The notes under the pieces: generated by a model
What the model was told of the DNA's origin: nothing
What the model saw: the letters and a program-made list of their open reading frames with translations, nothing else
The model's database searches: none
Position numbers and translations under genes: made by a program
In this document: positions 14,548 through 64,000 of the stretch, piece after piece
Layout: every line of letters begins with the position of its first letter
Position numbering within the stretch: the first letter of the stretch is position 1
NCBI GenBank assembly: GCA_963663385.2
Contig: CAXXXD010000004.1
Coordinates: forward strand, 960,001 to 1,024,000
Length of the DNA: 64,000 nucleotides
Source of the DNA: Oceanispirochaeta sp.
Lineage (GTDB): Bacteria; Spirochaetota; Spirochaetia; DSM-2461
Reading direction: 5' to 3'

Positions 14548-14892
14548 GTGATTCAGAAAGATCGGAATTTTCTAATTGAGGTTGCAAAAAAATACTATTT
14601 CGATGGTTGTTCGCAACAGGAAATAGCTAAGTATTATAATATCTCACGACCCAGCGTTTCAAATATCCTGAAACAGTGCAAGGAAGAGAAAATTGTCGAA
14701 ATCCGTATTCAGGAGAGCGAATCCTCACTGGTGCGGGCATTGGGTGAAAGGCTGAAAAATATTCCGGAGGTAATCGGAGTGGCGTGCGGTTCGGAAAAAG
14801 CCGATGCCATATCGGGAGCTATCAATGGCGGCCTTGTGAATTCCATAGTCACCGATGAGAATACAGCACTTCGAATCCTGAGCCGTTCATGA
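14548..14892 (+). pseudogene. SorC/DeoR(LsrR)-type sugar-binding regulator with internal deletion
   Basis: N-terminal HTH (YYFDGCSQQEIAKYYNISRPSVS) joined directly to the family C-terminus (VIGVACGSEKADAI..IVTDENTA); 114 aa versus about 310 typical. Confidence 0.8.
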
Positions 14893-52671: not shown

Positions 52672-53022
52672 TTAACTGGCGGCTGGCGGATTATATTGTC
52701 TGGCTATCAGATGATTTATTTCCTCCCGGGATAGTACATCCGGCAGTCGTTTTCTTTCCCTGATTCCGTTAAGTTTATATGGGCGCTCTTTTTTAAGGAC
52801 CAGTTTTTAGAACAGTTTTATGGCAGACCATGCCAGCCGTCGCTGTTCGCTGGTTTTCTGCTCTCTGTCGAGGAACTCTGCAATTCTTGCGTCCGGTTCC
52901 GGTTCCGTTTTTCTGTTGAAGCGAAGAAACTGATCCAGATACAGGCAATACTCCCGAATGGTATTGCGGGAATAACTCCTGTTTCTCATTTCCCTTCGGA
53001 AAATATCCAGATAATTCTGCAT
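52672..53022 (-). pseudogene. Tyrosine recombinase (integron-integrase/Xer-like) pseudogene: nonsense codon and loss of the catalytic domain
   Basis: SAM-like N-domain (MRNRSYSRNTIREYCLYLDQFLRF..AWSAIKLF); TAA at 52809-52807, then same-frame read-through KLVLKKERPYKLNGIRERKRLPDVLSREEINHLI, the typical LPxVLSxEE entry to the catalytic domain; no R..HxxR..Y found downstream. Confidence 0.85.
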
Positions 53023-53068: not shown

Positions 53069-53097
53069 TTGCATTTCCGTTAAAATAAATCTAAAAT
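53069..53097 (+). promoter_or_regulatory. Pc-like promoter facing the cassette array
   Basis: TTGCAT-17 nt-TAAAAT between the recombinase start and the first cassette. Confidence 0.6.
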
Positions 53098-53106
53098 AAA
53101 TCACGC

Positions 53107-53134
53107 AATGCGCATAATTGTAGTTATTTGTCAT
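53107..53134 (+). other. attI-like primary recombination site with dif-like architecture
   Basis: AATGCGCATAA-TTGTAG-TTATTTGTCAT; G/TT at 53123 begins cassette 1 and partly matches its 3' core (ACATAAC). Confidence 0.65.
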
Positions 53135-53148
53135 TCTTTGGAGACTTA

Positions 53149-53796
53149 ATGAAAGAAATAAATATACCAAAACTGTATAAACAATACTTTGTGGATAAAA
53201 ATGAGGAAAGAAAAGTTTTATTCGAGAAATTGAAGGATACGTACAAACCACAGAAAGGTATTTACCCAGGAAGTTTCGTGCATATCTCTCCTTCTTTTTA
53301 TATTCAAGAAATGCTTTATATCGATTCTGATAAGAGAATTACAAAATTTTTTGAAGATGAAAAAGTCTTAAAATATATAAACCTTAATAAAACTTATGAA
53401 GAAAAACCTAAAATTAAATCATTGCAAGCGGACTTTTCAATTAATTTACCAATTGATGAGAATTATTTCGATATTATGTTTTCCTTTTTTGCAGGTTTTA
53501 TATCACAATCCTGCAAAAAATATTTGAAAAATAATGGTATACTGGTGTGTAATAACAGTCATGGTGATGCGAGCATCGCTTATACTGACAAAGAATATGA
53601 ATTAGTTGCTGTAATAAAAAGAAATGGAAACAATTTCAGCATAAATGATAAAGATTTGGATGAGTATTTCATAAAAAAAGATGGAACCTCCATTGATACA
53701 GATAAAGTTCTAAGTAAGATGATAGGAGAAAATTTTACAAAAAAAGGGTATGCTTATGTGTTTAAATTTAACCGATACCCAAAAAACAACACATAA
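53149..53796 (+). CDS. Cassette 1: class I SAM-dependent methyltransferase-like protein
   Basis: GIYPGS, YIDSD, FDIMFS, KYLKNNGIL; GGAG RBS; stop TAA lies inside the core ACATAAC. Confidence 0.7.
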   Translation: MKEINIPKLYKQYFVDKNEERKVLFEKLKDTYKPQKGIYPGSFVHISPSFYIQEMLYIDSDKRITKFFEDEKVLKYINLNKTYEEKPKIKSLQADFSINLPIDENYFDIMFSFFAGFISQSCKKYLKNNGILVCNNSHGDASIAYTDKEYELVAVIKRNGNNFSINDKDLDEYFIKKDGTSIDTDKVLSKMIGENFTKKGYAYVFKFNRYPKNNT

Positions 53797-53870
53797 CAGC
53801 TAATATGCGGTTCCGCTTTGCTTCACTCAAATCGCCTGCGGCGACTTCGCATATTCGCGGAACGTTATAG
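53791..53870 (+). repeat. attC-like site 1 (intact)
   Basis: ACATAAC-a-gctAATATGCG...CGCATATTcgc-ggaac-GTTATAG. Confidence 0.88.
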
Positions 53871-53966
53871 GCAATAAGCGCCGGCAGAAATTGTTTCTTT
53901 TGTTGGAAGAACTCGCTATCCATGGCTCGTAATAACTTTAAAGTTATAAAGGAGTGTGATAATATA

Positions 53967-54620
53967 ATGAATATGACATTATCTATTATAGGATTCTTCG
54001 GTGGCCTTTTATGTGCTATAGCCGATATGTTATTGGATATCAAAGGTAAAGATAATCTAAAATGTGGTACTAAAAAAATCATGGACAGCAACTGGGTCAA
54101 AATGCCTTCGTGGCGTTTTATCACATCCATTATAATTGTAATGTTTGCAGTTCCGATGTATAGTATGGGAGTTCTCTCGTTAGCAAATCAAATTGCGCTA
54201 AATAATAAATCCCTCGGTGATTTACTTAAACTTTCAATTTTTATTGGAGCAATGGGAGGTTTTTTTATTCATACCCTTATTTGTATTGTTCCTATTATCT
54301 ACAAGGAAATTATGAAAGAAAATAATTTTGAGCTTGCAGATCGAGTAATTACCAATGTGTATAAAGCTGTTAAAATCCCATTTGTTGTACTGTATATTAT
54401 TTTAATATTGATACCTGCAATTATTGTAATTTTTTCAATTAATACAGGATTATTATATGTCCCTAAATGGTTCGTTCTTCTGAACCCGGTAACATTTCAA
54501 ATAATAGGATGGGTTCTTCGAGCAATAAAAAAGGATTGGTTTTATGAAGTTCCTTCTATTTTTATGGCTAGTCTTGGTTTAGCTATGTATGGAATTATTG
54601 GAATAGTTAATTTGATTTAG
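53967..54620 (+). CDS. Cassette 2: multi-TM membrane protein (DUF6796-like)
   Basis: GGLLCAIADMLLD..G, about 6 TMs; AAGGAG RBS at 53949. Confidence 0.7.
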   Translation: MNMTLSIIGFFGGLLCAIADMLLDIKGKDNLKCGTKKIMDSNWVKMPSWRFITSIIIVMFAVPMYSMGVLSLANQIALNNKSLGDLLKLSIFIGAMGGFFIHTLICIVPIIYKEIMKENNFELADRVITNVYKAVKIPFVVLYIILILIPAIIVIFSINTGLLYVPKWFVLLNPVTFQIIGWVLRAIKKDWFYEVPSIFMASLGLAMYGIIGIVNLI

Positions 54621-54685
54621 GCTTATTAACTGAATAATATACTGTGGCCGTTTGCCATCCATGGCTAACTGCTTTTAAATAATCT

Positions 54686-54777
54686 GGCACTTACTGCAAA
54701 TATATGTGGCGCCTTCGGCATAAGCTTCGCAACATTTTTGCTACGCAAAAAAGTCATATATTTGCAAAACACTAGAC
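54686..54777 (+). repeat. attC-like site 2 (left core deleted, right core GTT changed to ACT)
   Basis: Perfect 12-bp stem TGCAAATATATG/CATATATTTGCA, then aaac-ACTAGAC. Confidence 0.7.
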
Positions 54778-54969
54778 GCCATTTTTTTACTAGGGAATAC
54801 AAAATGAAAAATACCAAAATACTATTAATCATATTTACAGGCATTTCATTATACTTAGTAGCTTTTAAATTCCTTCTAATGTTTCAGGATCGTTCTGCTA
54901 CTGCAAAGTAAGCGGTAATTCTCTCCATCTTGCGTGATTTCGAAATGATTATATACTCCATGAAAAATC

Positions 54970-55266
54970 ATGGAGGAACCTAATATGACCAACTGGAATT
55001 GGCCTGAATTAATCGAAGAACAAAAACAGAGCGGGAAAACAATTTCTGAGTTCTGCGCAGATAAAGGAGTTCACTATACATCTTTCTACAAGAATCGAAA
55101 AAAATTAAAGAAAAGCAGTTTTATTGAAATCAAACAGAAAGCCCCGGTATTACAGCCACAAAACCCCACAATGATACTCAGATACAAGGATTTCTCATTG
55201 GATCTGGCATCAGGTTATAACAGGCAATCCCTGATAGATCTTCTGAAGATTCTGAGAGAGTTGTAA
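54970..55266 (+). CDS. tnpA: IS66 accessory protein TnpA
   Basis: W..LIEEQKQSGKTISEFC..GVHYTSFY HTH. Confidence 0.88.
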   Translation: MEEPNMTNWNWPELIEEQKQSGKTISEFCADKGVHYTSFYKNRKKLKKSSFIEIKQKAPVLQPQNPTMILRYKDFSLDLASGYNRQSLIDLLKILREL

Positions 55267-55610
55267 TGTTTGTTGACCTGAACGAATACCGGATCTTTCT
55301 GAGACCCGGCACGACAGACTTAAGAAAAGCGATCAACGGATTATCTCTGTTTATCCAGAATGAAATGAATCATGATTTATTCGCCAAATCGCTATTCCTC
55401 TTTTGTAACCGGCAGAGAAAACTTCTGAAAATTGTCTACTGGGATAATACCGGTTTTTGTCTCTGGCAGAAGAGACTGGAAGAGAACAGATATCCCTGGC
55501 CGGAAACAGATGAAGATGCTAAAGAGATCAGCATGGATGAATTGAAAATGCTCCTGACGGGAATAGACTTTTTCAAAGCGCATAAAAAATTATCATATTC
55601 CCGTATTTAG
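55266..55610 (+). CDS. tnpB: IS66 accessory protein TnpB
   Basis: TDLRKAINGL, LFLFCNRQR..LKIVYWD..GFCLWQKRLE. Confidence 0.95.
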   Translation: MFVDLNEYRIFLRPGTTDLRKAINGLSLFIQNEMNHDLFAKSLFLFCNRQRKLLKIVYWDNTGFCLWQKRLEENRYPWPETDEDAKEISMDELKMLLTGIDFFKAHKKLSYSRI

Positions 55611-55649
55611 AGATTTTATAATTATAGAAACTTTGATAGAATTCCCCGT

Positions 55650-57212
55650 ATGGAGAATGAAGAACAGCATTTAAGAGAACAACTTGATGCACAAAAAATA
55701 GAAATTGCTGAACTGAAAAGACTTAATGCCATTCTCCAGGAGCAAGTAGCAAAACTGAACCTCCTGCACTTTGGAACAAAATCAGAGAAGATAACTGCCG
55801 AAGATAAGAAACAAGCTTCTCTCTTCAATGAAGCGGAAGATAGTGCTTTTGCTCAGAATGATGAAGAGCAGGAGAAAAATGTTATTGAAACGGTTGAGGT
55901 CGGTTCCTACAAGAAAAATATTAAAAAATCCGGCCGGAAACCTCTGCCGGCAGATCTGCCGAGAGAGATCGTGGAATATGATATTCCGGATAAAGATAAG
56001 ATCTGTGCCTGCGGAACAGAAAAGACCTGTATCGGTGAAGATGTTTCCGAGAGAGCAAAAATTATTCCGTCAAAAGTCGTTGTTATTCAGGAACGTAGAA
56101 AAAAGTACTCCTGCAAGAATTGTGAAGGGACGACTCTTGATGAAGCTGCTGTACAGACCGCAGAAGGAGCAAAGCATCTGGTCGCGGGCAGTATTGCCGA
56201 TGAAAGCCTGCTCGCTTGGAGTATAAGCGAAAAGTTTGAGTTCGCTCTTCCTTTCTACAGGCAATCAAAACGGTTAAACCAGATAGGCATACCGATCCCC
56301 CGGGCGACATTGAGCAATCTTACGATAAAATCGGCAACGGCATGTAAGCCTCTATATGATTTGCTGAAAGAAAACATTAAATCCGGTTCCATTATTAATG
56401 CCGATGAGACGAGAGTTCAGGTTCTAAAGGAACCGAAACGAAAAGCTTCAGATAAATCATGGATGTGGGTCTTTCTCAGAGGAGATCCCGATAAAAAATG
56501 TGTCATATTTCAGTATGAGCAAGGCCGATCCCATGCAATTCCGTTGGATTTCTTGGAAAATTACTCTGGCTGGGTTCAAACTGATGATTTTGAGGCCTAC
56601 CATACTGCCCGAAAAAAAGTTGATGGAGATATAAAGCATGTCTTATGCTGGGCCCATGCCAGAAGAAAGTTCTTCCAATATTGGGAATCAACCAAGAAAA
56701 AAGATGCAGAAGCAAAGCAAATTCTCGACCTGATAAAGGATCTGTTTGAACTGGAATCATTACGGGATAATTATTCGCTAAAAGGGTTTCATAAACAGCG
56801 ACAAAATAGAGCAGAACCGATACTAGATAAGTTACAGAAAAAACTGACGAAGCTTTATCCTCAAGTACCTCCTTCTTTAGAGTTCGGTAAGGCGATGAAG
56901 TATACATTGAGCAACTGGGAGCAGTTGGTTCTATATCTGAAAAATCCTGTTTTGACTCCTTCGAACAATAGCGCTGAAAATGCAATCAGACCCTTCGTAA
57001 TCGGGAGAAAAAACTGGCTTTTTGCCGGAAGCCCGAAAGGTGCTGAATCATCGGCAATTCTGTACAGTCTCGTTGAATCTGCGAAGATGAACAATCTTCC
57101 AGTTTATGCTTACTTGTACTTTATCTTCCGGGAATTGCCCTGCTGTGAAAAACAGAGTGATTATGAAAAATTACTTCCCTATAATTTAACTGCTGAAGAT
57201 ATTGCAATCTGA
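55650..57212 (+). CDS. tnpC: IS66 DDE transposase TnpC
   Basis: FGTKSEK, zinc finger, NADET, QTDD, CWAHARRKF, SNNSAENAIRP. Confidence 0.97.
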   Translation: MENEEQHLREQLDAQKIEIAELKRLNAILQEQVAKLNLLHFGTKSEKITAEDKKQASLFNEAEDSAFAQNDEEQEKNVIETVEVGSYKKNIKKSGRKPLPADLPREIVEYDIPDKDKICACGTEKTCIGEDVSERAKIIPSKVVVIQERRKKYSCKNCEGTTLDEAAVQTAEGAKHLVAGSIADESLLAWSISEKFEFALPFYRQSKRLNQIGIPIPRATLSNLTIKSATACKPLYDLLKENIKSGSIINADETRVQVLKEPKRKASDKSWMWVFLRGDPDKKCVIFQYEQGRSHAIPLDFLENYSGWVQTDDFEAYHTARKKVDGDIKHVLCWAHARRKFFQYWESTKKKDAEAKQILDLIKDLFELESLRDNYSLKGFHKQRQNRAEPILDKLQKKLTKLYPQVPPSLEFGKAMKYTLSNWEQLVLYLKNPVLTPSNNSAENAIRPFVIGRKNWLFAGSPKGAESSAILYSLVESAKMNNLPVYAYLYFIFRELPCCEKQSDYEKLLPYNLTAEDIAI

Positions 57213-57516
57213 TCCATCAGTCCTAAAATGCTGTCAATGTGGGAAGAATTACCGCTTACACTGCAAATCCCCCAGCAGTTTCTGTTTCAGCCAACTTAGT
57301 TGCATCGGCCCTGATTTTCATTTTTTTCTTCCTGGCTTCTATTCTTTTTTCCTTTAGTATTTTTACTTGTATTCAAATTTTAAAATTTAATATATTTCTT
57401 TTTATTGGCTATTCAATTTTGCTTTTCTTATCTGACTTCACTCTTGTCGGTATTTCATTTATAGCATTAGTAATTATATTAATTAGAGGCCTTTTACACT
57501 CAAAGCGTAAAAAACA

Positions 57517-57605
57517 GCGTATAAAAAAATATACGTTACGCTTTGCTTCACCCAAATTGGCCGATGGCTCTGTGGTTTGCTTCGTATATTCTCGAAACGT
57601 TAGGT
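57517..57605 (+). repeat. attC-like site 3 (left core degenerate)
   Basis: GCGTATAAA (GCGTCTAAC expected from the cassette start ACTAGACGC), AATATACG...CGTATATTctc-gaaac-GTTAGGT. Confidence 0.8.
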
Positions 57606-57662
57606 GTAATGCTTGACAGAAAAAAAAATCAAAAATAATCTTAAATGAACGGAGGATAAATA

Positions 57663-58289
57663 ATGAAAATTAAGGTTCTAATAGTTATTTTTACAGTTAT
57701 TCTTTTGGCTGGGTGTGCAAGTGGTCCAAAATCACAGGCATACGTATATAAAGATCAATATTGGGATGAGCTTATTTCGCGAAATAAGGTAGTTCAATTA
57801 CTTGATACTCGGTTTGAAGTGGCTTCTCAAGTTGGAAATACACAAAAAGGAGCTCCTTTAGAAAACATTGAAAAAGATGAAATAACTCCTATTGTTGTTG
57901 AAATTCTTAAGAAACATGATTTTGAAGTAAATGTTGTTGGTGGAATCCAATTAGTAGACTCAAATTATACTAACTTTCCACAGGAAAGAATACCCGAAGA
58001 GTCAAGAGATAAATTCTTTGTCCAGGCGTCTTCAATTTACCTTGATAGAAGTTCAACAAATTCAAATTACCAATCTATTTTTAAACTTTACTATGTAACT
58101 CCCGAAGGCGATATTATAAAATTAGGTTTTGGATTGTCAGAACAAAGAGTAGAACATTATGATTCCCTTAATGCTGATGATTTAATTCAAATAAAACAGA
58201 ATGTAAGTACTTCAGATGGTTTCGAAACAATAGTTCTTTCTGTTGTTAAATCTTCTATAGAAACGTTTTTAACCAAAAAAGAGCTCTAA
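57663..58289 (+). CDS. Cassette 4: hypothetical lipoprotein
   Basis: Lipobox LLAGC; GGAGG RBS; TTGACA-17-TAATCT at 57613-57641. Confidence 0.8.
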   Translation: MKIKVLIVIFTVILLAGCASGPKSQAYVYKDQYWDELISRNKVVQLLDTRFEVASQVGNTQKGAPLENIEKDEITPIVVEILKKHDFEVNVVGGIQLVDSNYTNFPQERIPEESRDKFFVQASSIYLDRSSTNSNYQSIFKLYYVTPEGDIIKLGFGLSEQRVEHYDSLNADDLIQIKQNVSTSDGFETIVLSVVKSSIETFLTKKEL

Positions 58290-58304
58290 ACCCCAAAGCA
58301 TTAC

Positions 58305-58420
58305 ACCTACCAGCAAATATACGCTGCGGCTTCGCCTTGGCCTTCGGCAAATAAACCCTTTGAATATATTCAAGCCCTCAAGGGGCCGGGGTTACTTCGT
58401 ATATTCTCGGAATGTTTAGG
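58305..58420 (+). repeat. attC-like site 4
   Basis: ACCTACC-a-gcaAATATACG...CGTATATTctc-ggaat-GTTTAGG. Confidence 0.85.
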
Positions 58421-58487
58421 CAATAAGCACTTTAATTTTTAATAAAATAGAGAAAATGCCACCCCGGCGGCTCGTATTGGAGGTAAA

Positions 58488-58892
58488 ATGAAACATTTAG
58501 GTTCGTGTCTTTGCGGAAATATCAAATATGAAATAAGAGGGAATTTTGAGAACTTTTTTTTCTGTCACTGTAAATCTTGTCGTAAAGATACTGGGTCAGT
58601 TCATGCTTCAAATCTTTTTTCAACAACTGCAACATTAAAATGGTTGAAAGGAGAGGAAAAAGTAAAAATGTATAACCACAAAAATTCAGGCCACATAAAA
58701 AGCTTCTGTCCTAACTGTGGCTCTGCATTACCTAATATTCAAATGGATAGTAAACTACTTGTTGTTCCTGCAGGAAGTCTTGATACAGATATAGAAATGG
58801 TTCCTACTGGTCACATCTATTTAAAAGAGAAAGCGAATTGGGATCACAATCTTGAGATGATTCCACACTATGAGGATTTGCCAAAAGAATAA
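58488..58892 (+). CDS. Cassette 5: GFA/CENP-V family Zn protein
   Basis: GSCLCG, CHCKSCRK, FCPNCGS. Confidence 0.93.
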   Translation: MKHLGSCLCGNIKYEIRGNFENFFFCHCKSCRKDTGSVHASNLFSTTATLKWLKGEEKVKMYNHKNSGHIKSFCPNCGSALPNIQMDSKLLVVPAGSLDTDIEMVPTGHIYLKEKANWDHNLEMIPHYEDLPKE

Positions 58893-58975
58893 AATGTGTA
58901 GAAATCTGAATTTACCGGAAATCAGGCATCGTTCGCCGCCATCTGCACACATTTCAATATATCAGAGCTTAATGC

Positions 58976-59061
58976 CTATAACAGCGTTTTATATGCGGTG
59001 CCTGCGACGTGGGCTTCGTAACAGCCTATAGCAAACGTCATATAAACGCGGAACGTTATAG
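58976..59061 (+). repeat. attC-like site 5 (intact)
   Basis: CTATAAC-a-GCGTTTTATATG...CATATAAACGC-ggaac-GTTATAG. Confidence 0.9.
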
Positions 59062-59134
59062 GCAATAAGCGGTTAGATTTTCTATAAGCAATAAGAATCC
59101 GCCATATATGGCGGATAAAAAAAATAAAAAAGTA

Positions 59135-59165
59135 TTGCAGTTGTCCCAACGTCAAGTTCTATACT
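59135..59165 (+). promoter_or_regulatory. MerR-type promoter with 19-bp spacer
   Basis: TTGCAG-19 nt-TATACT with an imperfect dyad TTGTC..GTCAA in the spacer, directly upstream of a MerR gene. Confidence 0.6.
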
Positions 59166-59210
59166 CCAAAGTGATGATCATCAATAACTGTAAAAGAATG
59201 GATATTAACT

Positions 59211-60131
59211 ATGAATGATTCTGTATCAATAAACGAGATTTCTTCTCTGTTAGGAGTAACAAGCAGAACTATAAGGTTTTGGGAATCGGAAGGTCTTTTT
59301 GAATGTAAGAGACATCCATATTCAGGTCATAGGCTTGTTGAAAACACTATGGTAAATAAAGTTAAACTTTGTTCAGAACTGCGAAATATTGGAATTTCAA
59401 TAAAAGATATTAAACGGATTTTCGAATCGCAATCACTAGCTTCTGTAACAAAAGTTATTGAAGAAAACCTTGCATCAATAGATGCCGATTCTCAAATCTT
59501 TGAGAATCGAAAAGCAATGTTAATAATGCTTTTTAATATTCTCAAAACAGAAGAAAAGATCGCTGCAGGTTCTTTCATTGATTTTCATTCTTTTCTAATC
59601 AATTTACTTCAAGAAAATAACTTGAAGAAATCACAGGAGAAGAAAATGATAAATAGTGACCTGAAAAAAGTGTATGAAATAGTAGAGCTTCCAAAAATGA
59701 GAGTGGTTTATAATATTTCAGTTAGTAAAAGTCCTGAAGATGAAGCAATAGAACCGATACTGGAATGGATAAAAGAGAAAGGGCTTCTTGGTGTATCAAG
59801 ATTGTTTGGTGGAAATGTGAAACCATTTCCCAAGGATTCAAATAGTGAATATGGCTATGGGATGTGTGCGTCAATACCGGCAGATATTGATGTTCCAGAT
59901 CATTTGAAAGAGATGGAAATCCCGGGTGGTTTATATGCACTACTCCCTAGCGATGATGATATTGCTGATTCATGGAAAAAGTTTATGAAAAGTTTTAAGA
60001 AGGATAAGAAGTATTGCTCCGATAGATCTAGATTGTGTTTTGAAGAGCATATTTATTATGGAAGGCCTGGCGATAGTGGGTACTCCTTTAAAATAAATTT
60101 ATTAGAACCAATAAAAGATGTTAATCAGTAG
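59211..60131 (+). CDS. Cassette 6: MerR-family regulator with GyrI-like effector domain
   Basis: SINEISSLLGVTSRTIRFWESEGL HTH; IVELPKMRV..GYGMCASIP..EIPGGLYA..CFEEH. Confidence 0.9.
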   Translation: MNDSVSINEISSLLGVTSRTIRFWESEGLFECKRHPYSGHRLVENTMVNKVKLCSELRNIGISIKDIKRIFESQSLASVTKVIEENLASIDADSQIFENRKAMLIMLFNILKTEEKIAAGSFIDFHSFLINLLQENNLKKSQEKKMINSDLKKVYEIVELPKMRVVYNISVSKSPEDEAIEPILEWIKEKGLLGVSRLFGGNVKPFPKDSNSEYGYGMCASIPADIDVPDHLKEMEIPGGLYALLPSDDDIADSWKKFMKSFKKDKKYCSDRSRLCFEEHIYYGRPGDSGYSFKINLLEPIKDVNQ

Positions 60132-60203
60132 ATAATATCTTTAGCAGAGAGGCCGTTCGCCATCCTTGGCTCACTACTTGTTATTCAACGCAGCGCTTAC
60201 TAC

Positions 60204-60293
60204 CTATAACAGAGTTTACAAGGTTGGGCCTACGGCCTCTCCCAAATTGTCTTGCTGAGCAAGACAACTTTCTGTAAAATCAAAACGTTAAGT
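60204..60293 (+). repeat. attC-like site 6 (intact)
   Basis: CTATAAC-a-GAgTTTACA...TGTAAAaTC-aaaac-GTTAAGT. Confidence 0.85.
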
Positions 60294-60378
60294 GAAATCT
60301 CGTTTTTTGACTGGAGACAGGATTTTTGATAAAATGATATCAATGAGGTTTGCATGATAATTTTCAAAGGGAAATAAC

Positions 60379-61227
60379 ATGAAAAAAGCAGTAAAATATT
60401 TCACTATTTGTATGGTATTAGTATTTACCATTTCAAGTTGCTCCAGAAAAGATGAAAAACTGTCTGTATTTCAATTAACCGGGGAATTAAGAATTACTGA
60501 GATTGAAAGCAATATATTTTTAGTTACGCACAGCTTTCCCTGGCCGGGTAATTCTTTGATGATTGTTATGGATAAAAAGAATATTCTCTGGATCGATACA
60601 CCATATACACCGGAGGCCACTGCTTTAGTATTGAACTGGATTGAAGAAAAGTATGGAAAAGGGTATTCAATTACAGAAATCAATACAGGGTTTCATATTG
60701 ACAATTTGGGTGGCAATCAAGAATTAGTAAAAAGAAATATACCAATATATGGCTCTAATTTGACGTGCGAGCTTCTTGGAACAAGAAGCAAAAACACGAT
60801 GCTGAATATGATGAATTGGCTAAAAGGGGAAAAATACGAAGATTACAGAAACGTGTATTCTGATTTTACATTTTACAGCCCTACTATTACTTTTAACATT
60901 CATGATGAACAAACAATTGTTTTTGGATCAAATGAAGTGATTATATATTATCCTGGACCAACACATACGTATGACAATCTGGTTGTCTATATACCAAGTC
61001 AAAAAATTCTTTTTGGAGGATGTATGATACTGTCCACCGATGCCGATAAAGTTGGTTATATTGAAGATGGGAACTTGGAAGAATGGGCAAATTCACTCAC
61101 AAAATTAGAAAATCGTTTTGATAATATAAGAGTCATTGTTCCTGGTCATGGAAATCCAGGAGACTCTACGCTAATAGCTCATACAAAAGACATCGTTAAT
61201 GCTTCTGGAGAAACGACAGAAGAATGA
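60379..61227 (+). CDS. Cassette 7: subclass B1 metallo-beta-lactamase, SPS-1/SPM-1-like, predicted lipoprotein
   Basis: IDTP, TGFHIDNLGG (G116-x-H118-x-D120), PTHTYDN (H196), FGGC (C221), PGHG (H263); lipobox ISSC. Confidence 0.85.
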   Translation: MKKAVKYFTICMVLVFTISSCSRKDEKLSVFQLTGELRITEIESNIFLVTHSFPWPGNSLMIVMDKKNILWIDTPYTPEATALVLNWIEEKYGKGYSITEINTGFHIDNLGGNQELVKRNIPIYGSNLTCELLGTRSKNTMLNMMNWLKGEKYEDYRNVYSDFTFYSPTITFNIHDEQTIVFGSNEVIIYYPGPTHTYDNLVVYIPSQKILFGGCMILSTDADKVGYIEDGNLEEWANSLTKLENRFDNIRVIVPGHGNPGDSTLIAHTKDIVNASGETTEE

Positions 61228-61238
61228 AAAATTATTTC

Positions 61239-61275
61239 GCCTAACAGCGAATATGCGGTTACGCCTCCGGTTCCA
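61239..61275 (+). repeat. attC-like site 7, left half only
   Basis: GCCTAAC-a-GCGAATATGCGGTTACGCCTCCGGTTCCAT, nearly the same as the left half at 62911, then runs directly into coding-like sequence. Confidence 0.75.
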
Positions 61276-61404
61276 TACTGTGATAGAGAAGAACTAGTTA
61301 AAATATTGAGTGATACAGAATCAATGAAATTTTATCCGGCACCGTTTAGCCATAAGAAAGTAGAGAACTGGATAAAATGGAATGAAATTTGTGAAATATT
61401 CTGA
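61276..61404 (+). pseudogene. Fragment of a RimJ/RimL-type GNAT acetyltransferase
   Basis: DREELVKILSDTESMKFYPAPFSHKKVENWIKWN; no start codon, early stop. Confidence 0.65.
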
Positions 61405-61512
61405 GAAAGAAGTTATGGGAGAAGCGGTTCGGGAAATACTCTAATGTATACACCGATGAAATGTTATATATCAGCAGAACATTCCGTCTGATTATCTTTG
61501 TAGAGATGTTAA

Positions 61513-61806
61513 ATGGAAAATATTGAAACATATAAAGCAACAGATGGTGAGAACATATTAGGATTTATCTCCTTACAGGATGAGTATCTTGCTGCCATTT
61601 TCGTGAGATCTGAATTCCAGGGGAGAGGGATTGGATCTTTATTATTAAACCATGCAATGGATCTCCGTAATAATCTGCAGTTAGAAATGTTCTGTAAAAA
61701 CCAAAAGAGTGTAGAATTTTATAAAACAAAAGGATTTTCTATAATTTCCGAATCAATAGATAATGAGACAGGAGAAAATGAGTTTGTCATGGGGTGGCAG
61801 AAATAA
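61513..61806 (+). pseudogene. GNAT acetyltransferase (YjaB-like), apparently N-terminally truncated
   Basis: ILGFISL..LAAIFVRSEFQGRGIGSLLL..NQKSVEFYKTKGF; only 97 aa. Confidence 0.7.
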
Positions 61807-61812
61807 AACCGG

Positions 61813-61877
61813 GCATAGCTCGAATATGCGATATCGATTCACCACAGTCAACTTCGAATATTTGTGGGATGTTATAT
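61813..61877 (+). repeat. Degenerate attC-like site
   Basis: GCATAGC-t-CGAATATGCG...ACTTCGAATATTTG-tgggat-GTTATAT. Confidence 0.7.
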
Positions 61878-61946
61878 CAAAATTCAAGTATAATTGTGTT
61901 AATTATACCGGAACAAACCGTGGTGCGGTAGTAGAAAGAAGAGTAA

Positions 61947-62840
61947 ATGATTAAATATACAGAAAATATTGAAGATGTTAAGAAATTTATCCAGGAGAAT
62001 TATAATCAAACCATTGATTTGAGTTCTTTAGCGAATGTTGCCTGTTTATCATCTTTCCATTTTTCTAGGATTTTTCGTTCGATTACGGGTTATACGCCTA
62101 TGCAATATCTAAAGAAAATCCGACTTGAAAAATCAATCTACTATCTGACACATAGTTCCTTAAATGTCTCCGAAGTTGCATATAAATGTGGTTTCAATTC
62201 AATATCAAGTTTCAATTCTTCCTTTAAAGCACAATATAATAGAAGACCGAATGAATTCAGAAACATACAAAAAAGCAAGATTAAGGAAGAATTCGGCAAT
62301 AATCAGAAAGAGTTTTCCATAGAGAACAAACATAATCTCAATAACTCGTTTTTAAGGAGAATTTGGGATATGAATGTGAATATCAAAGAACTGCCGGAAT
62401 ACAGAATTGCATTTTTCAGGCATGTCGGAAGTTATTTAAATACAGGAGAAAACTGGAATAAATTACTTAAATGGGTTGAAGCAAAGGATCTATTTAAAAC
62501 AAATCCATTGTTTATTGGAATATCACGAGATGATCCAGCAACAACAGAGGAAAATGCATGTAGACATGATGCCTGTGTAACTCTGCCGGGAGACTTTAAT
62601 GAAGAGGCCGATGGGAGTGAGGTCTTGTATGATAGAATAGCATCTGGAAAATACGCAATCTATGAGTTTTATGATACTATAGATAAGTTGGGATTAGTAT
62701 ACAGAAATCTTTTTATAGAATGGTTACCCCAAAGTGATTATGAAATGGATTGCAGGCCATGTTTAGAAATAAATTTAAATAATCCGGCTGATGATCCTGA
62801 AGGAAAAAGCAGATGTAACATCTGTATTCCAATAAAATAG
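61947..62840 (+). CDS. Cassette: AraC-family regulator with GyrI-like domain
   Basis: LANVACLSSFHFSRIF..VAYKCGFNSISSF; FFRHVGSY..DDP..CRHDAC..GKYA..WLPQS. Confidence 0.93.
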   Translation: MIKYTENIEDVKKFIQENYNQTIDLSSLANVACLSSFHFSRIFRSITGYTPMQYLKKIRLEKSIYYLTHSSLNVSEVAYKCGFNSISSFNSSFKAQYNRRPNEFRNIQKSKIKEEFGNNQKEFSIENKHNLNNSFLRRIWDMNVNIKELPEYRIAFFRHVGSYLNTGENWNKLLKWVEAKDLFKTNPLFIGISRDDPATTEENACRHDACVTLPGDFNEEADGSEVLYDRIASGKYAIYEFYDTIDKLGLVYRNLFIEWLPQSDYEMDCRPCLEINLNNPADDPEGKSRCNICIPIK

Positions 62841-62910
62841 TACCTATTTGGACCGTCTTAAAATACACCCTTGTATTTTGGGGGAATAAATGAAGTAAGC
62901 TATAATCTTC

Positions 62911-62992
62911 ATATAACAGGGAATCCGCGGTTACACCTTCGGCTCCATTCAAAGGATCTCCTGTAACTTAGCATATTCTCAGAACGTAAAAT
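62911..62992 (+). repeat. attC-like site (right core GTT changed to GTA)
   Basis: ATATAAC, complementary to this cassette's GTTATAT start, -a-GGGAATccGC...GCatATTCTC-agaac-GTAAAAT. Confidence 0.8.
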
Positions 62993-63016
62993 GAAATACC
63001 AGGGGGCGTAATCAAG

Positions 63017-63199
63017 TTGAAAAAGAAAATTCGGCGATATGTTTTAATACTTTTAGTTTTTATTCTATTTATCCCGGCAATCTATTTGGGGCTCTTGTTT
63101 TATATTCATGATTTTGATCATAATTTTTTAAAAATAGATCAATGTTTAGATAATGGCGGAAGATGGGATTATAACGATTGTGAATGTAAGCAGGAATAA
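63017..63199 (+). CDS. Cassette: small membrane protein with Cys motif
   Basis: One TM followed by IDQCLDNGGRWDYNDCEC; TTG start with AGGGG RBS. Confidence 0.6.
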   Translation: MKKKIRRYVLILLVFILFIPAIYLGLLFYIHDFDHNFLKIDQCLDNGGRWDYNDCECKQE

Positions 63200-63209
63200 G
63201 GCTGTAAAA

Positions 63210-63243
63210 AGATAACCGCCGCATATTTTCTGAGCCGTTAAAT
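63210..63243 (+). repeat. Collapsed attC-like site (internal deletion)
   Basis: AGATAAC joined almost directly to the right arm CGCATATTttc..GTTAAAT. Confidence 0.55.
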
Positions 63244-63270
63244 TAAATCCATTATTTTAGGGAAATAAAA

Positions 63271-63448
63271 ATGTTAAAAGAATTCATAGGAAAATCTGTT
63301 CATATATAGTGGTATCTACTCTTATTTAACCAACCCGGAGAAAGTTGTCATGATTGATGTTGATGAGAGCTGGTTAAAGCTCGAAAGTCGAAGCAAAATA
63401 ATACTGCCGGATGTAAATAAAATCAGCAAGGTTAAAACGAATAAATGA
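63271..63448 (+). pseudogene. Cassette: small beta-rich protein gene, disrupted
   Basis: MLKEFIGKSVHI* then VVMIDVDESWLKLE..KISKV in another frame; RBS AGGGA; followed by the right-arm remnant TATATTgttgaaat-GTTATAGGCAAT at 63472. Confidence 0.5.
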
Positions 63449-63506
63449 TGTATTTTATATATTGTTGAAATGTTATAGGCAATGATTCAGCTGGAGAAAA
63501 ACGTAC

Positions 63507-63986
63507 ATGAAATATATGTGTCCATTGATAGTTGTAAGTGATGTAAAACGCTCACGGGAATTCTATGAAAAGATTCTGAAACAGACTGTCAAATATGATT
63601 TCGGGGAAAATGTGACATTTGCTGGTGATTTCGCCATACATGAAAAAGCCCATTTTGAATCACTGATAAATAATGCTGAAATTAAAGAGAAATCGAATAA
63701 TTTTGAACTTTATTTTGAGCATGATGATTTGGAAGAGATGGTGGTTAGAATAAAGGAATCAGGGCTGGAGTTTGTACATGAAATAGTAGAACAGCCCTGG
63801 AAGCAGCAGGTTCTAAGGTTTTATGACTATGATAAAAATATGATAGAAGTCGGAGAAAGACTGGAGCATACAGCGTATAGATTATCAAAGCAGAATTATT
63901 CGATTGAAGACATATGCAGAATAACGTATCTGGAAAAAGAAATTGTTGAAAACGCGATAGATGAGTATTCGCATCTGGAGGGATAA
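63507..63986 (+). CDS. Cassette: VOC/glyoxalase-bleomycin-resistance family protein
   Basis: LIVVSDVKRSREFYEKIL, ELYFE, EQPWKQQVLRFYDYDKNMIEV. Confidence 0.9.
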   Translation: MKYMCPLIVVSDVKRSREFYEKILKQTVKYDFGENVTFAGDFAIHEKAHFESLINNAEIKEKSNNFELYFEHDDLEEMVVRIKESGLEFVHEIVEQPWKQQVLRFYDYDKNMIEVGERLEHTAYRLSKQNYSIEDICRITYLEKEIVENAIDEYSHLEG

Positions 63987-64000
63987 CTATTTTAAAAATA

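Follow-up and report, generated by a model that had tools for sequence, protein, structure and literature searches.

The 28-bp sequence at positions 53107-53134 of the window (the whole 64,000-nucleotide stretch of DNA analysed here) is a real entry site of a variant integron plan. We consider it probable that this sequence is the attI equivalent of an integron-like cassette array and that its two XerC-like arms are likely both bound by the array's own tyrosine recombinase, a 266-aa enzyme without the I2 insertion that is broken here and intact in relatives. Sequence comparisons establish the conservation of the site, its fixed G/TT junction, the turnover of cassettes beyond it, a single XerC-type consensus for both arms, the absence of I2 and the strand bias of the predicted attC hairpins. 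The window copy is a relic, and the array in this genome is likely frozen and decaying.

The entry site and the first junction of the array

The site reads AATGCGCATAA-TTGTAG-TTATTTGTCAT. Compared with the arms of E. coli dif, it matches at 9 of 11 positions on the left and at 7 of 11 on the right, with a 6-nt centre between them, and the likeness to dif noted in the preliminary description is therefore genuine. Scores of 16/22 or more occur at 38 positions in the whole genome (~10.6 million positions, both strands). Because such a score is uncommon but not unique, the weight of the observation rests on its coincidence with the first junction of the array. The left arm was not used to set this junction, which was located by complementarity: the cassette 1 end (CAACACATAAC, 53787-53797) matches the complement of the sequence from 53123 onwards, and 53123 is the single best site for this complement within the first 420 nt. 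The motif thus falls exactly where attI had been placed. The right arm (53124-53134, plus strand), being complementary to the cassette 1 end, is supplied by cassette 1, as had also been proposed. The left arm (53107-53117, plus strand) and the centre TTGTAG (53118-53123, plus strand) are borne by the platform, with the crossover after the G at 53123. Arm comparison and alignment with relatives identify the left arm as XerC-like, and by eye it matches the C arm of the A. haemolyticus dif given in PMC10132070 at 10 of 11 positions.

The proposed distinction between a 6-nt spacer here and a 7-nt spacer in attI1 has to be dropped. The top-strand crossover of attI1 is placed between both A residues of AAC (PMC4792948), which together with the G/TT cut gives a 6-nt overlap (ACAAAG) and the same 7-5-7 spacing as in the window. 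The attI1 overlap is also 6 bp, and therefore the spacer distinguishes nothing.

A candidate cassette promoter (TTGCAT-17 nt-TAAAAT, 53069-53097, plus strand) precedes the site. Its TTG and TAAAAT elements are conserved at equal spacing in the alignment of close relatives, and a consensus promoter scan returned 0 sites. On the minus strand, an inverted 28-mer at 53089-53116 overlaps the entry site and also scores 16/22 to E. coli dif, because the left arm carries a CGCA-A-TGCG repeat at its outer end. This 28-mer is possibly an accessory binding arm over the candidate promoter.

Conservation of the site across related loci

Dif-like sites recur beside such recombinase genes in 37 loci, which are kin and not independent samples. 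These loci were drawn from three sets of relatives (8, 7 of 80 and 22 of 30). The 7 of 80 encode short I2-less proteins and have the site visible beside the gene; for the other short proteins among those 80, a crude pattern found no site among the matches listed. Of the 30, eight were left out: four lay at contig ends, one repeated another locus, two were seen only by eye, and one had no site in its 55 nt of upstream sequence. Four further close loci from metagenomes were taken in (4/7). The junctions were picked by a cassette-start profile that is blind to the left arm; manual correction was applied to five, and in four of these the left arm guided it.

In the 37 kin loci, the left arms match the pdif C arm at a mean of 7.2 of 11 positions, compared with 4.1 of 11 at 204 other GTT sites. 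The centre is 6 bp long in 29 loci and 7 bp in 8. The complement test with the first cassette agrees uniquely with the profile in 20 of 28 loci, ties in 3 and differs in 5; three of the differing results correspond to a short first cassette's own junction and one to a mis-called first attC. The left arms of G015 (AATTCGCATAA) and G141 (AATTCGTATAA) are identical to C arms printed in PMC10132070. The recombinases of loci L169 and L170 are one residue apart; these near-identical platforms carry different first cassettes, and their sequences diverge right after GTTA. L171 and L172 share the centre TTGTAG of the window, and L171 carries another cassette. Related loci therefore keep the motif at the array start and the sequence changes after the same G/TT, so that the two outcomes that would have spoken against the site, a motif not kept in related loci or a displaced junction, are not borne out. 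In the loci examined, the motif always adjoins the local recombinase gene.

A second I2-less group (L131-L141 and L144, in genomes G066, G048, G103, G377, G208, G332, G180, G359 and G099) encodes N-terminally extended proteins, mostly of 340-380 aa, and has the entry site downstream of the stop codon, a same-strand layout shared with Treponema integrons. The centre is 7 bp in 6 of 9 cases, and in several a palindrome abuts the left arm. We also considered whether the left arm is generally preceded, back to back, by an extra arm, and rejected this: the extra arm is clear in few loci only, with a mean of 3.1/8 at the best axis (one row mis-indexed).

The recombinase is broken in the window and intact in relatives

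The broken short tyrosine recombinase gene (52705-53022, minus strand) lies upstream of the array and is divergent from the cassettes. It retains the N-terminal SAM-like domain (PF13495) and has lost the catalytic domain: a stop is present at codon 72 (52807-52809), similarity fades near residue 106, and a search of the genome found the catalytic half neither here nor elsewhere. The remaining part is 57% identical to the intact 266-aa protein of L171, compared with 25% to the genome's IntI. The intact close relatives, 266-aa tyrosine recombinases that are 56-61% identical to it over the N-terminal part, possess all catalytic motifs and show an alignment gap over the I2 region. Because the window enzyme has no C-terminal half, we infer its lack of I2 from these relatives.

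Short enzymes that retain every catalytic motif are found across many genera. The distance from the catalytic R to HxLRH is 91 residues in these enzymes, compared with 133 in most IntI rows. In a profile search they fell below the integron-integrase cut-off, with recomb_XerA_Arch as the best family. The predicted model of L012 (pLDDT 83.7) had VchIntIA (2a3v) and XerA (5hxy) as its top folds, with longer alignments to 2a3v than to 5hxy. Since the trees contain no characterised XerA sequence, kinship with XerA rests on these profile and fold scores. In a tree of 41 rows with XerC/D as outgroup, IntI forms one clade (100/99), and IntI together with the I2-less rows is separated from XerC/D (100/100). 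IntI joins the group of the window at 91/87 only, and the branch order inside the IntI/I2-less group is weak. Holding the 21 I2-less rows together was not rejected (AU p 0.318), and we therefore do not claim that IntI is nested inside them. With XerC/D as the outgroup, either tree shape makes the absence of I2 the older state under this inferred root.

A phage search with the L171 protein returned 381 records, of which the best 15 were all 28-32% identical. A same-genus copy (L024; G011:C11, upstream of 7581) is also broken, its open frame ending after ~125 residues. Its left arm is repeated directly 25 nt upstream, and its cassette 1 seems to contain a mobile insertion.

Cassettes, cassette arms and attC hairpins

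The array consists of ~12 same-strand cassettes from 53124 to about 63990. Cassette 1 (53124-53864, plus strand) contains an ORF (53149-53796) with no Pfam match. It is followed by ~11 further plus-strand cassettes (53865-63990; 8 found by profile and 3 read by eye), with junctions at 54771, 57599, 58414, 59055, 60287, about 61463, 61871, 62986, 63237 and 63472. Their contents include DUF6796, GFA, MerR-GyrI, metallo-beta-lactamase-fold, GNAT, AraC-GyrI and glyoxalase proteins, as well as unknowns. An IS66-family element, recognized by Pfam, inverted ends and an 8-bp target duplication, lies within cassette 3 (54908-57259, plus strand). In the protein encoded by the cassette at 60379-61227, a signal-peptide-like start precedes a metallo-beta-lactamase fold (PF00753). 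At the cassette end at 63200-63240, the right half-site follows TAAC almost directly, which gives the appearance of a deleted left stem and loop.

Sixty distinct cassette starts yielded the consensus TTA(T)RYG(A/C)AAT; part of these arrays had also served to train the profile, which was scanned with the attC side only. Position 7 is G in 45 of the 60, and the TTA of XerD at positions 6-8 is present in none. The mean match is 7.0 to the XerD arm and 7.55 to the reversed C arm (n = 60). As the left arm and the cassette arms are both XerC-like, the 28-mer is, judged by its letters, a pseudo-palindrome whose two arms suit the same recombinase.

Cassette 1 ends in an attC-like hairpin (53787-53864, plus strand) composed of TAAC, one A, an 11-bp stem, a loop, the returning stem, GGAAC and G. 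Among 48 stems chosen solely for pairing (10/11), 45 are preceded by (T/C)AACA. Thirty-seven distinct attC sites share the order AAC, A, 11-bp unbroken stem, loop, stem, 5 nt and GTT, with 1-versus-5 spacers and without extrahelical bases; in most stem columns, several pair types occur. In reconstituted attC sites, the bottom strand is predicted to be the more stable in 31 of 31, and pair 11 of the R arm is C.A on the top strand, corresponding to G.T on the bottom strand, in 27 of 28. Cassette ends match their own start at 4.5 of 5 positions, compared with 2.7 of 5 for the start of the next cassette (n = 31); the two ends of a cassette are thus complementary, as in integrons. The 3' arm of attC has the 11-6-11 geometry of attI, and the opposite arm loops out 4 nt.

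In the mechanism that we propose, the bottom strand of attC would fold so as to copy the 11-6-11 duplex; on the exchanged strand 4 nt would loop out, and the R arm would contain a G.T pair. The short enzyme would bind all four arms and exchange one (bottom) strand at the R box. A second exchange may be prevented by the loop-out or the wobble pair and not by I2, and replication would resolve the junction, as in integrons.

The hairpins depart from this model in places. The minimum-energy fold of the window attC1 is not exactly the model; only 1 of 8 window sites fits the strict model, and most window attC sites are degenerate. However, in the arrays of G033 and G129, which have intact enzymes, 0 of 10 attC sites fit in each. 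The attC architecture thus varies, and the decay in the window proves little; we rejected it as weak proof of a dead array. The CPR loci have a 1-versus-4 spacer. Within the genome, such attC sites are found in this array only, and a plasmid search with attC1 gave no match.

Which recombinase serves the site

Three other explanations were weighed. In the first, the site is an ordinary integron attI served by the canonical IntI of the genome, its likeness to dif reflects no more than the descent common to all tyrosine recombinase sites, with the short gene as either a bystander or a degenerate IntI. The spacing equal to that of attI1, the integron-like layout and G/TT junction, and the intact I2-bearing IntI on another contig are all consistent with it. 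However, the attC sites here are without the bulged base and the 5/5-6 spacers that we saw in canonical controls (10 sites beside I2-bearing integrases), no attC of the present kind is found near the genome's IntI, and the short enzymes are complete in their catalytic motifs in many genera and not nested inside IntI. We therefore regard this explanation as unlikely. The interval G000:C2:1685842-1688955 holds this IntI and, upstream of it, a 426-aa ORF that by eye resembles the reverse transcriptase of a group II intron; crude screens found no canonical attC beside the IntI. Elsewhere in the genome, three identical-scoring copies (G000:C2:1865491, C3:1641116 and C4:302774) of a unit with two recombinases are present, which is probably a recombinase-in-trio element.

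The second explanation is that host XerC/D recombine the site in the manner known from pdif modules and CTX phage, with or without the local enzyme, and keep the array usable once that enzyme is lost. The preliminary description had raised such a role for XerC/D. Both genes are intact and lie, like the IntI gene, on contig C2 (G000:C2:1528370-1531935, 1.7 kb apart on one strand). The identity of the left arms of G015 and G141 to published XerC arms also favours this explanation, as do the 10 of 60 cassette arms that reach 9-10 of 11 matches to the XerD arm, and phage dif mimics are described as able to carry a degenerate XerD arm (PMC3025954). Yet the TTA of XerD, constant in the pdif arms shown in PMC10132070, is absent from all 60 cassette arms, and the right arm, at 7/11 in the window, varies with the cassette. 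Since the 6-bp centre stays with the platform, exchange occurs at the right, XerD-side border, whereas CTX is described as using XerC only (PMC7790495). The motif also accompanies a local recombinase gene at every locus examined.

Position and history also speak against host XerC/D. The window is on contig C4, in a region of steady skew, and the skew switch is on C3; the entry site is at least 0.45 Mb from the switch and about 1.5 Mb from it in a balanced contig order (order inferred). It matches two published spirochaete dif sites (PMC3025954 supplement) at only 13/22 and 14/22, scores equalled at 14577 and 2642 genome positions, respectively. A sister strain differing at 15 of 1852 nt (0.8%) has the same stop, truncation, cassette 1 and cassette 2 start, so that the front of the array is frozen, and its left arm has drifted (G53110A; read from a single assembled contig of depth 2, the arm change recurring in another sample of that study). 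Host XerC/D are thus likely not serving this array, and we consider their action very improbable.

In the suggested search for the chromosomal dif by skew, the switch was located on C3, and an octamer-skew search found no dif. A genome scan with the E. coli arms found none either. With the two published spirochaete dif sites as query, the best match was 18/22 and none lay at the terminus, and a degenerate pattern applied to 38 genomes gave no excess over a reversed control. One candidate (C3:1379404) was rejected because it is present in only 1 of the 38 genomes. These searches thus located no dif-like partner site for xerC and xerD in this family.

The least probable explanation is that the short enzyme, like XerA, performs two exchanges on double-stranded dif-like sites only (attI and the left half of attC, itself an 11-6-11 site) and does not use the hairpins. 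XerA is its nearest named family. However, attI and the left half of attC point in opposite directions, so that a duplex reaction would invert DNA. The cassette borders are at the right-hand G/TT, where the spacer exceeds that of a duplex site by 4 nt, and the mismatches favour one strand (31/31).

Implications for the origin of integrons

The I2-less cassette system likely represents a living step between Xer/dif and integrons. An intermediate of this kind had been suggested for the window, and the suggestion stands as regards the XerC-like left arm and the cognate enzyme, an I2-less relative that groups with IntI; the spacer contrast with attI1 does not hold, and an action of host XerC/D is not supported. 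In the published view, cassettes cannot be captured without I2, integrons began when a Xer-like ancestor gained it, and there is no ancestor at hand in which this could be tested (PMC7790495). With natural I2-less enzymes and their own sites, the role of I2 and the sequence in which these steps occurred become directly testable. We give about even chances to a scenario in which I2-less Xer-like recombinases, dif-type pseudo-palindromic attI sites and dif-mimicking hairpins are surviving ancestral integrons, capture having preceded I2, and I2 and the bulged bases having arisen later on the IntI branch.

The cassette start TTATGTTCAAT, which matches the XerD arm at 10/11, recurs in the arrays of L025 (G015) and L033. 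Joined to the left arm of G015, it would rebuild a near-canonical dif, leaving room for cross-talk with host Xer.

A full-text literature search, which covered few subscription papers, found no cassette arrays run by I2-less recombinases and no dif-like attI. The I2-type insertion is described as not fully conserved in an integron-like subgroup (PMC8138268), and the portions consulted of PMC3607928, PMC4889954, PMC8352920 and PMC8371274 concern canonical integrons or XerA. Integron detection is described as relying on the IntI-specific domain (PMC4889954). Such detection would likely miss I2-less arrays, whose cassettes here encode regulators, acetyltransferases and metallo-beta-lactamase-fold proteins.

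Comparison with known systems

The present system shares with integrons (IntI1/attI1; VchIntIA, 2a3v) a recombinase gene beside attI, a row of same-strand cassettes, the G/TT junction, the 7-5-7 site with its 6-bp overlap and predicted bottom-strand hairpins, and divergent and same-strand gene layouts occur in both. It differs in that its enzymes are without the I2 insertion, as read in relatives (the window gene lacks that half), and in that its arms are XerC-like and conserved over 11 bp. Moreover, integron attC sites have bulged bases, whereas the attC stem here is unbroken with a 1-versus-5 spacer, and the cassette arm ends in (A/C)AAT, which is absent from 9 canonical controls (from GC-rich hosts).

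The 11-6-11 layout and a left arm matching XerC arms are shared with XerC/XerD at dif, pdif and CTX, and the mimicry of a duplex site by a folded single strand, described for CTX phage (PMC7790495), is likewise proposed for attC here. Unlike in those systems, both arms are of the XerC type, a dedicated recombinase gene lies beside the site, the crossover is on the XerD side and far from the terminus, and each new cassette brings a replacement for one arm. Single-subunit Xer recombinases (XerA, 5hxy and 4a8e; XerH) share the size, the fold and the best family match of the short enzymes, and one protein acts on both inverted arms, as is suggested here; XerA, however, resolves chromosome dimers at one fixed site.
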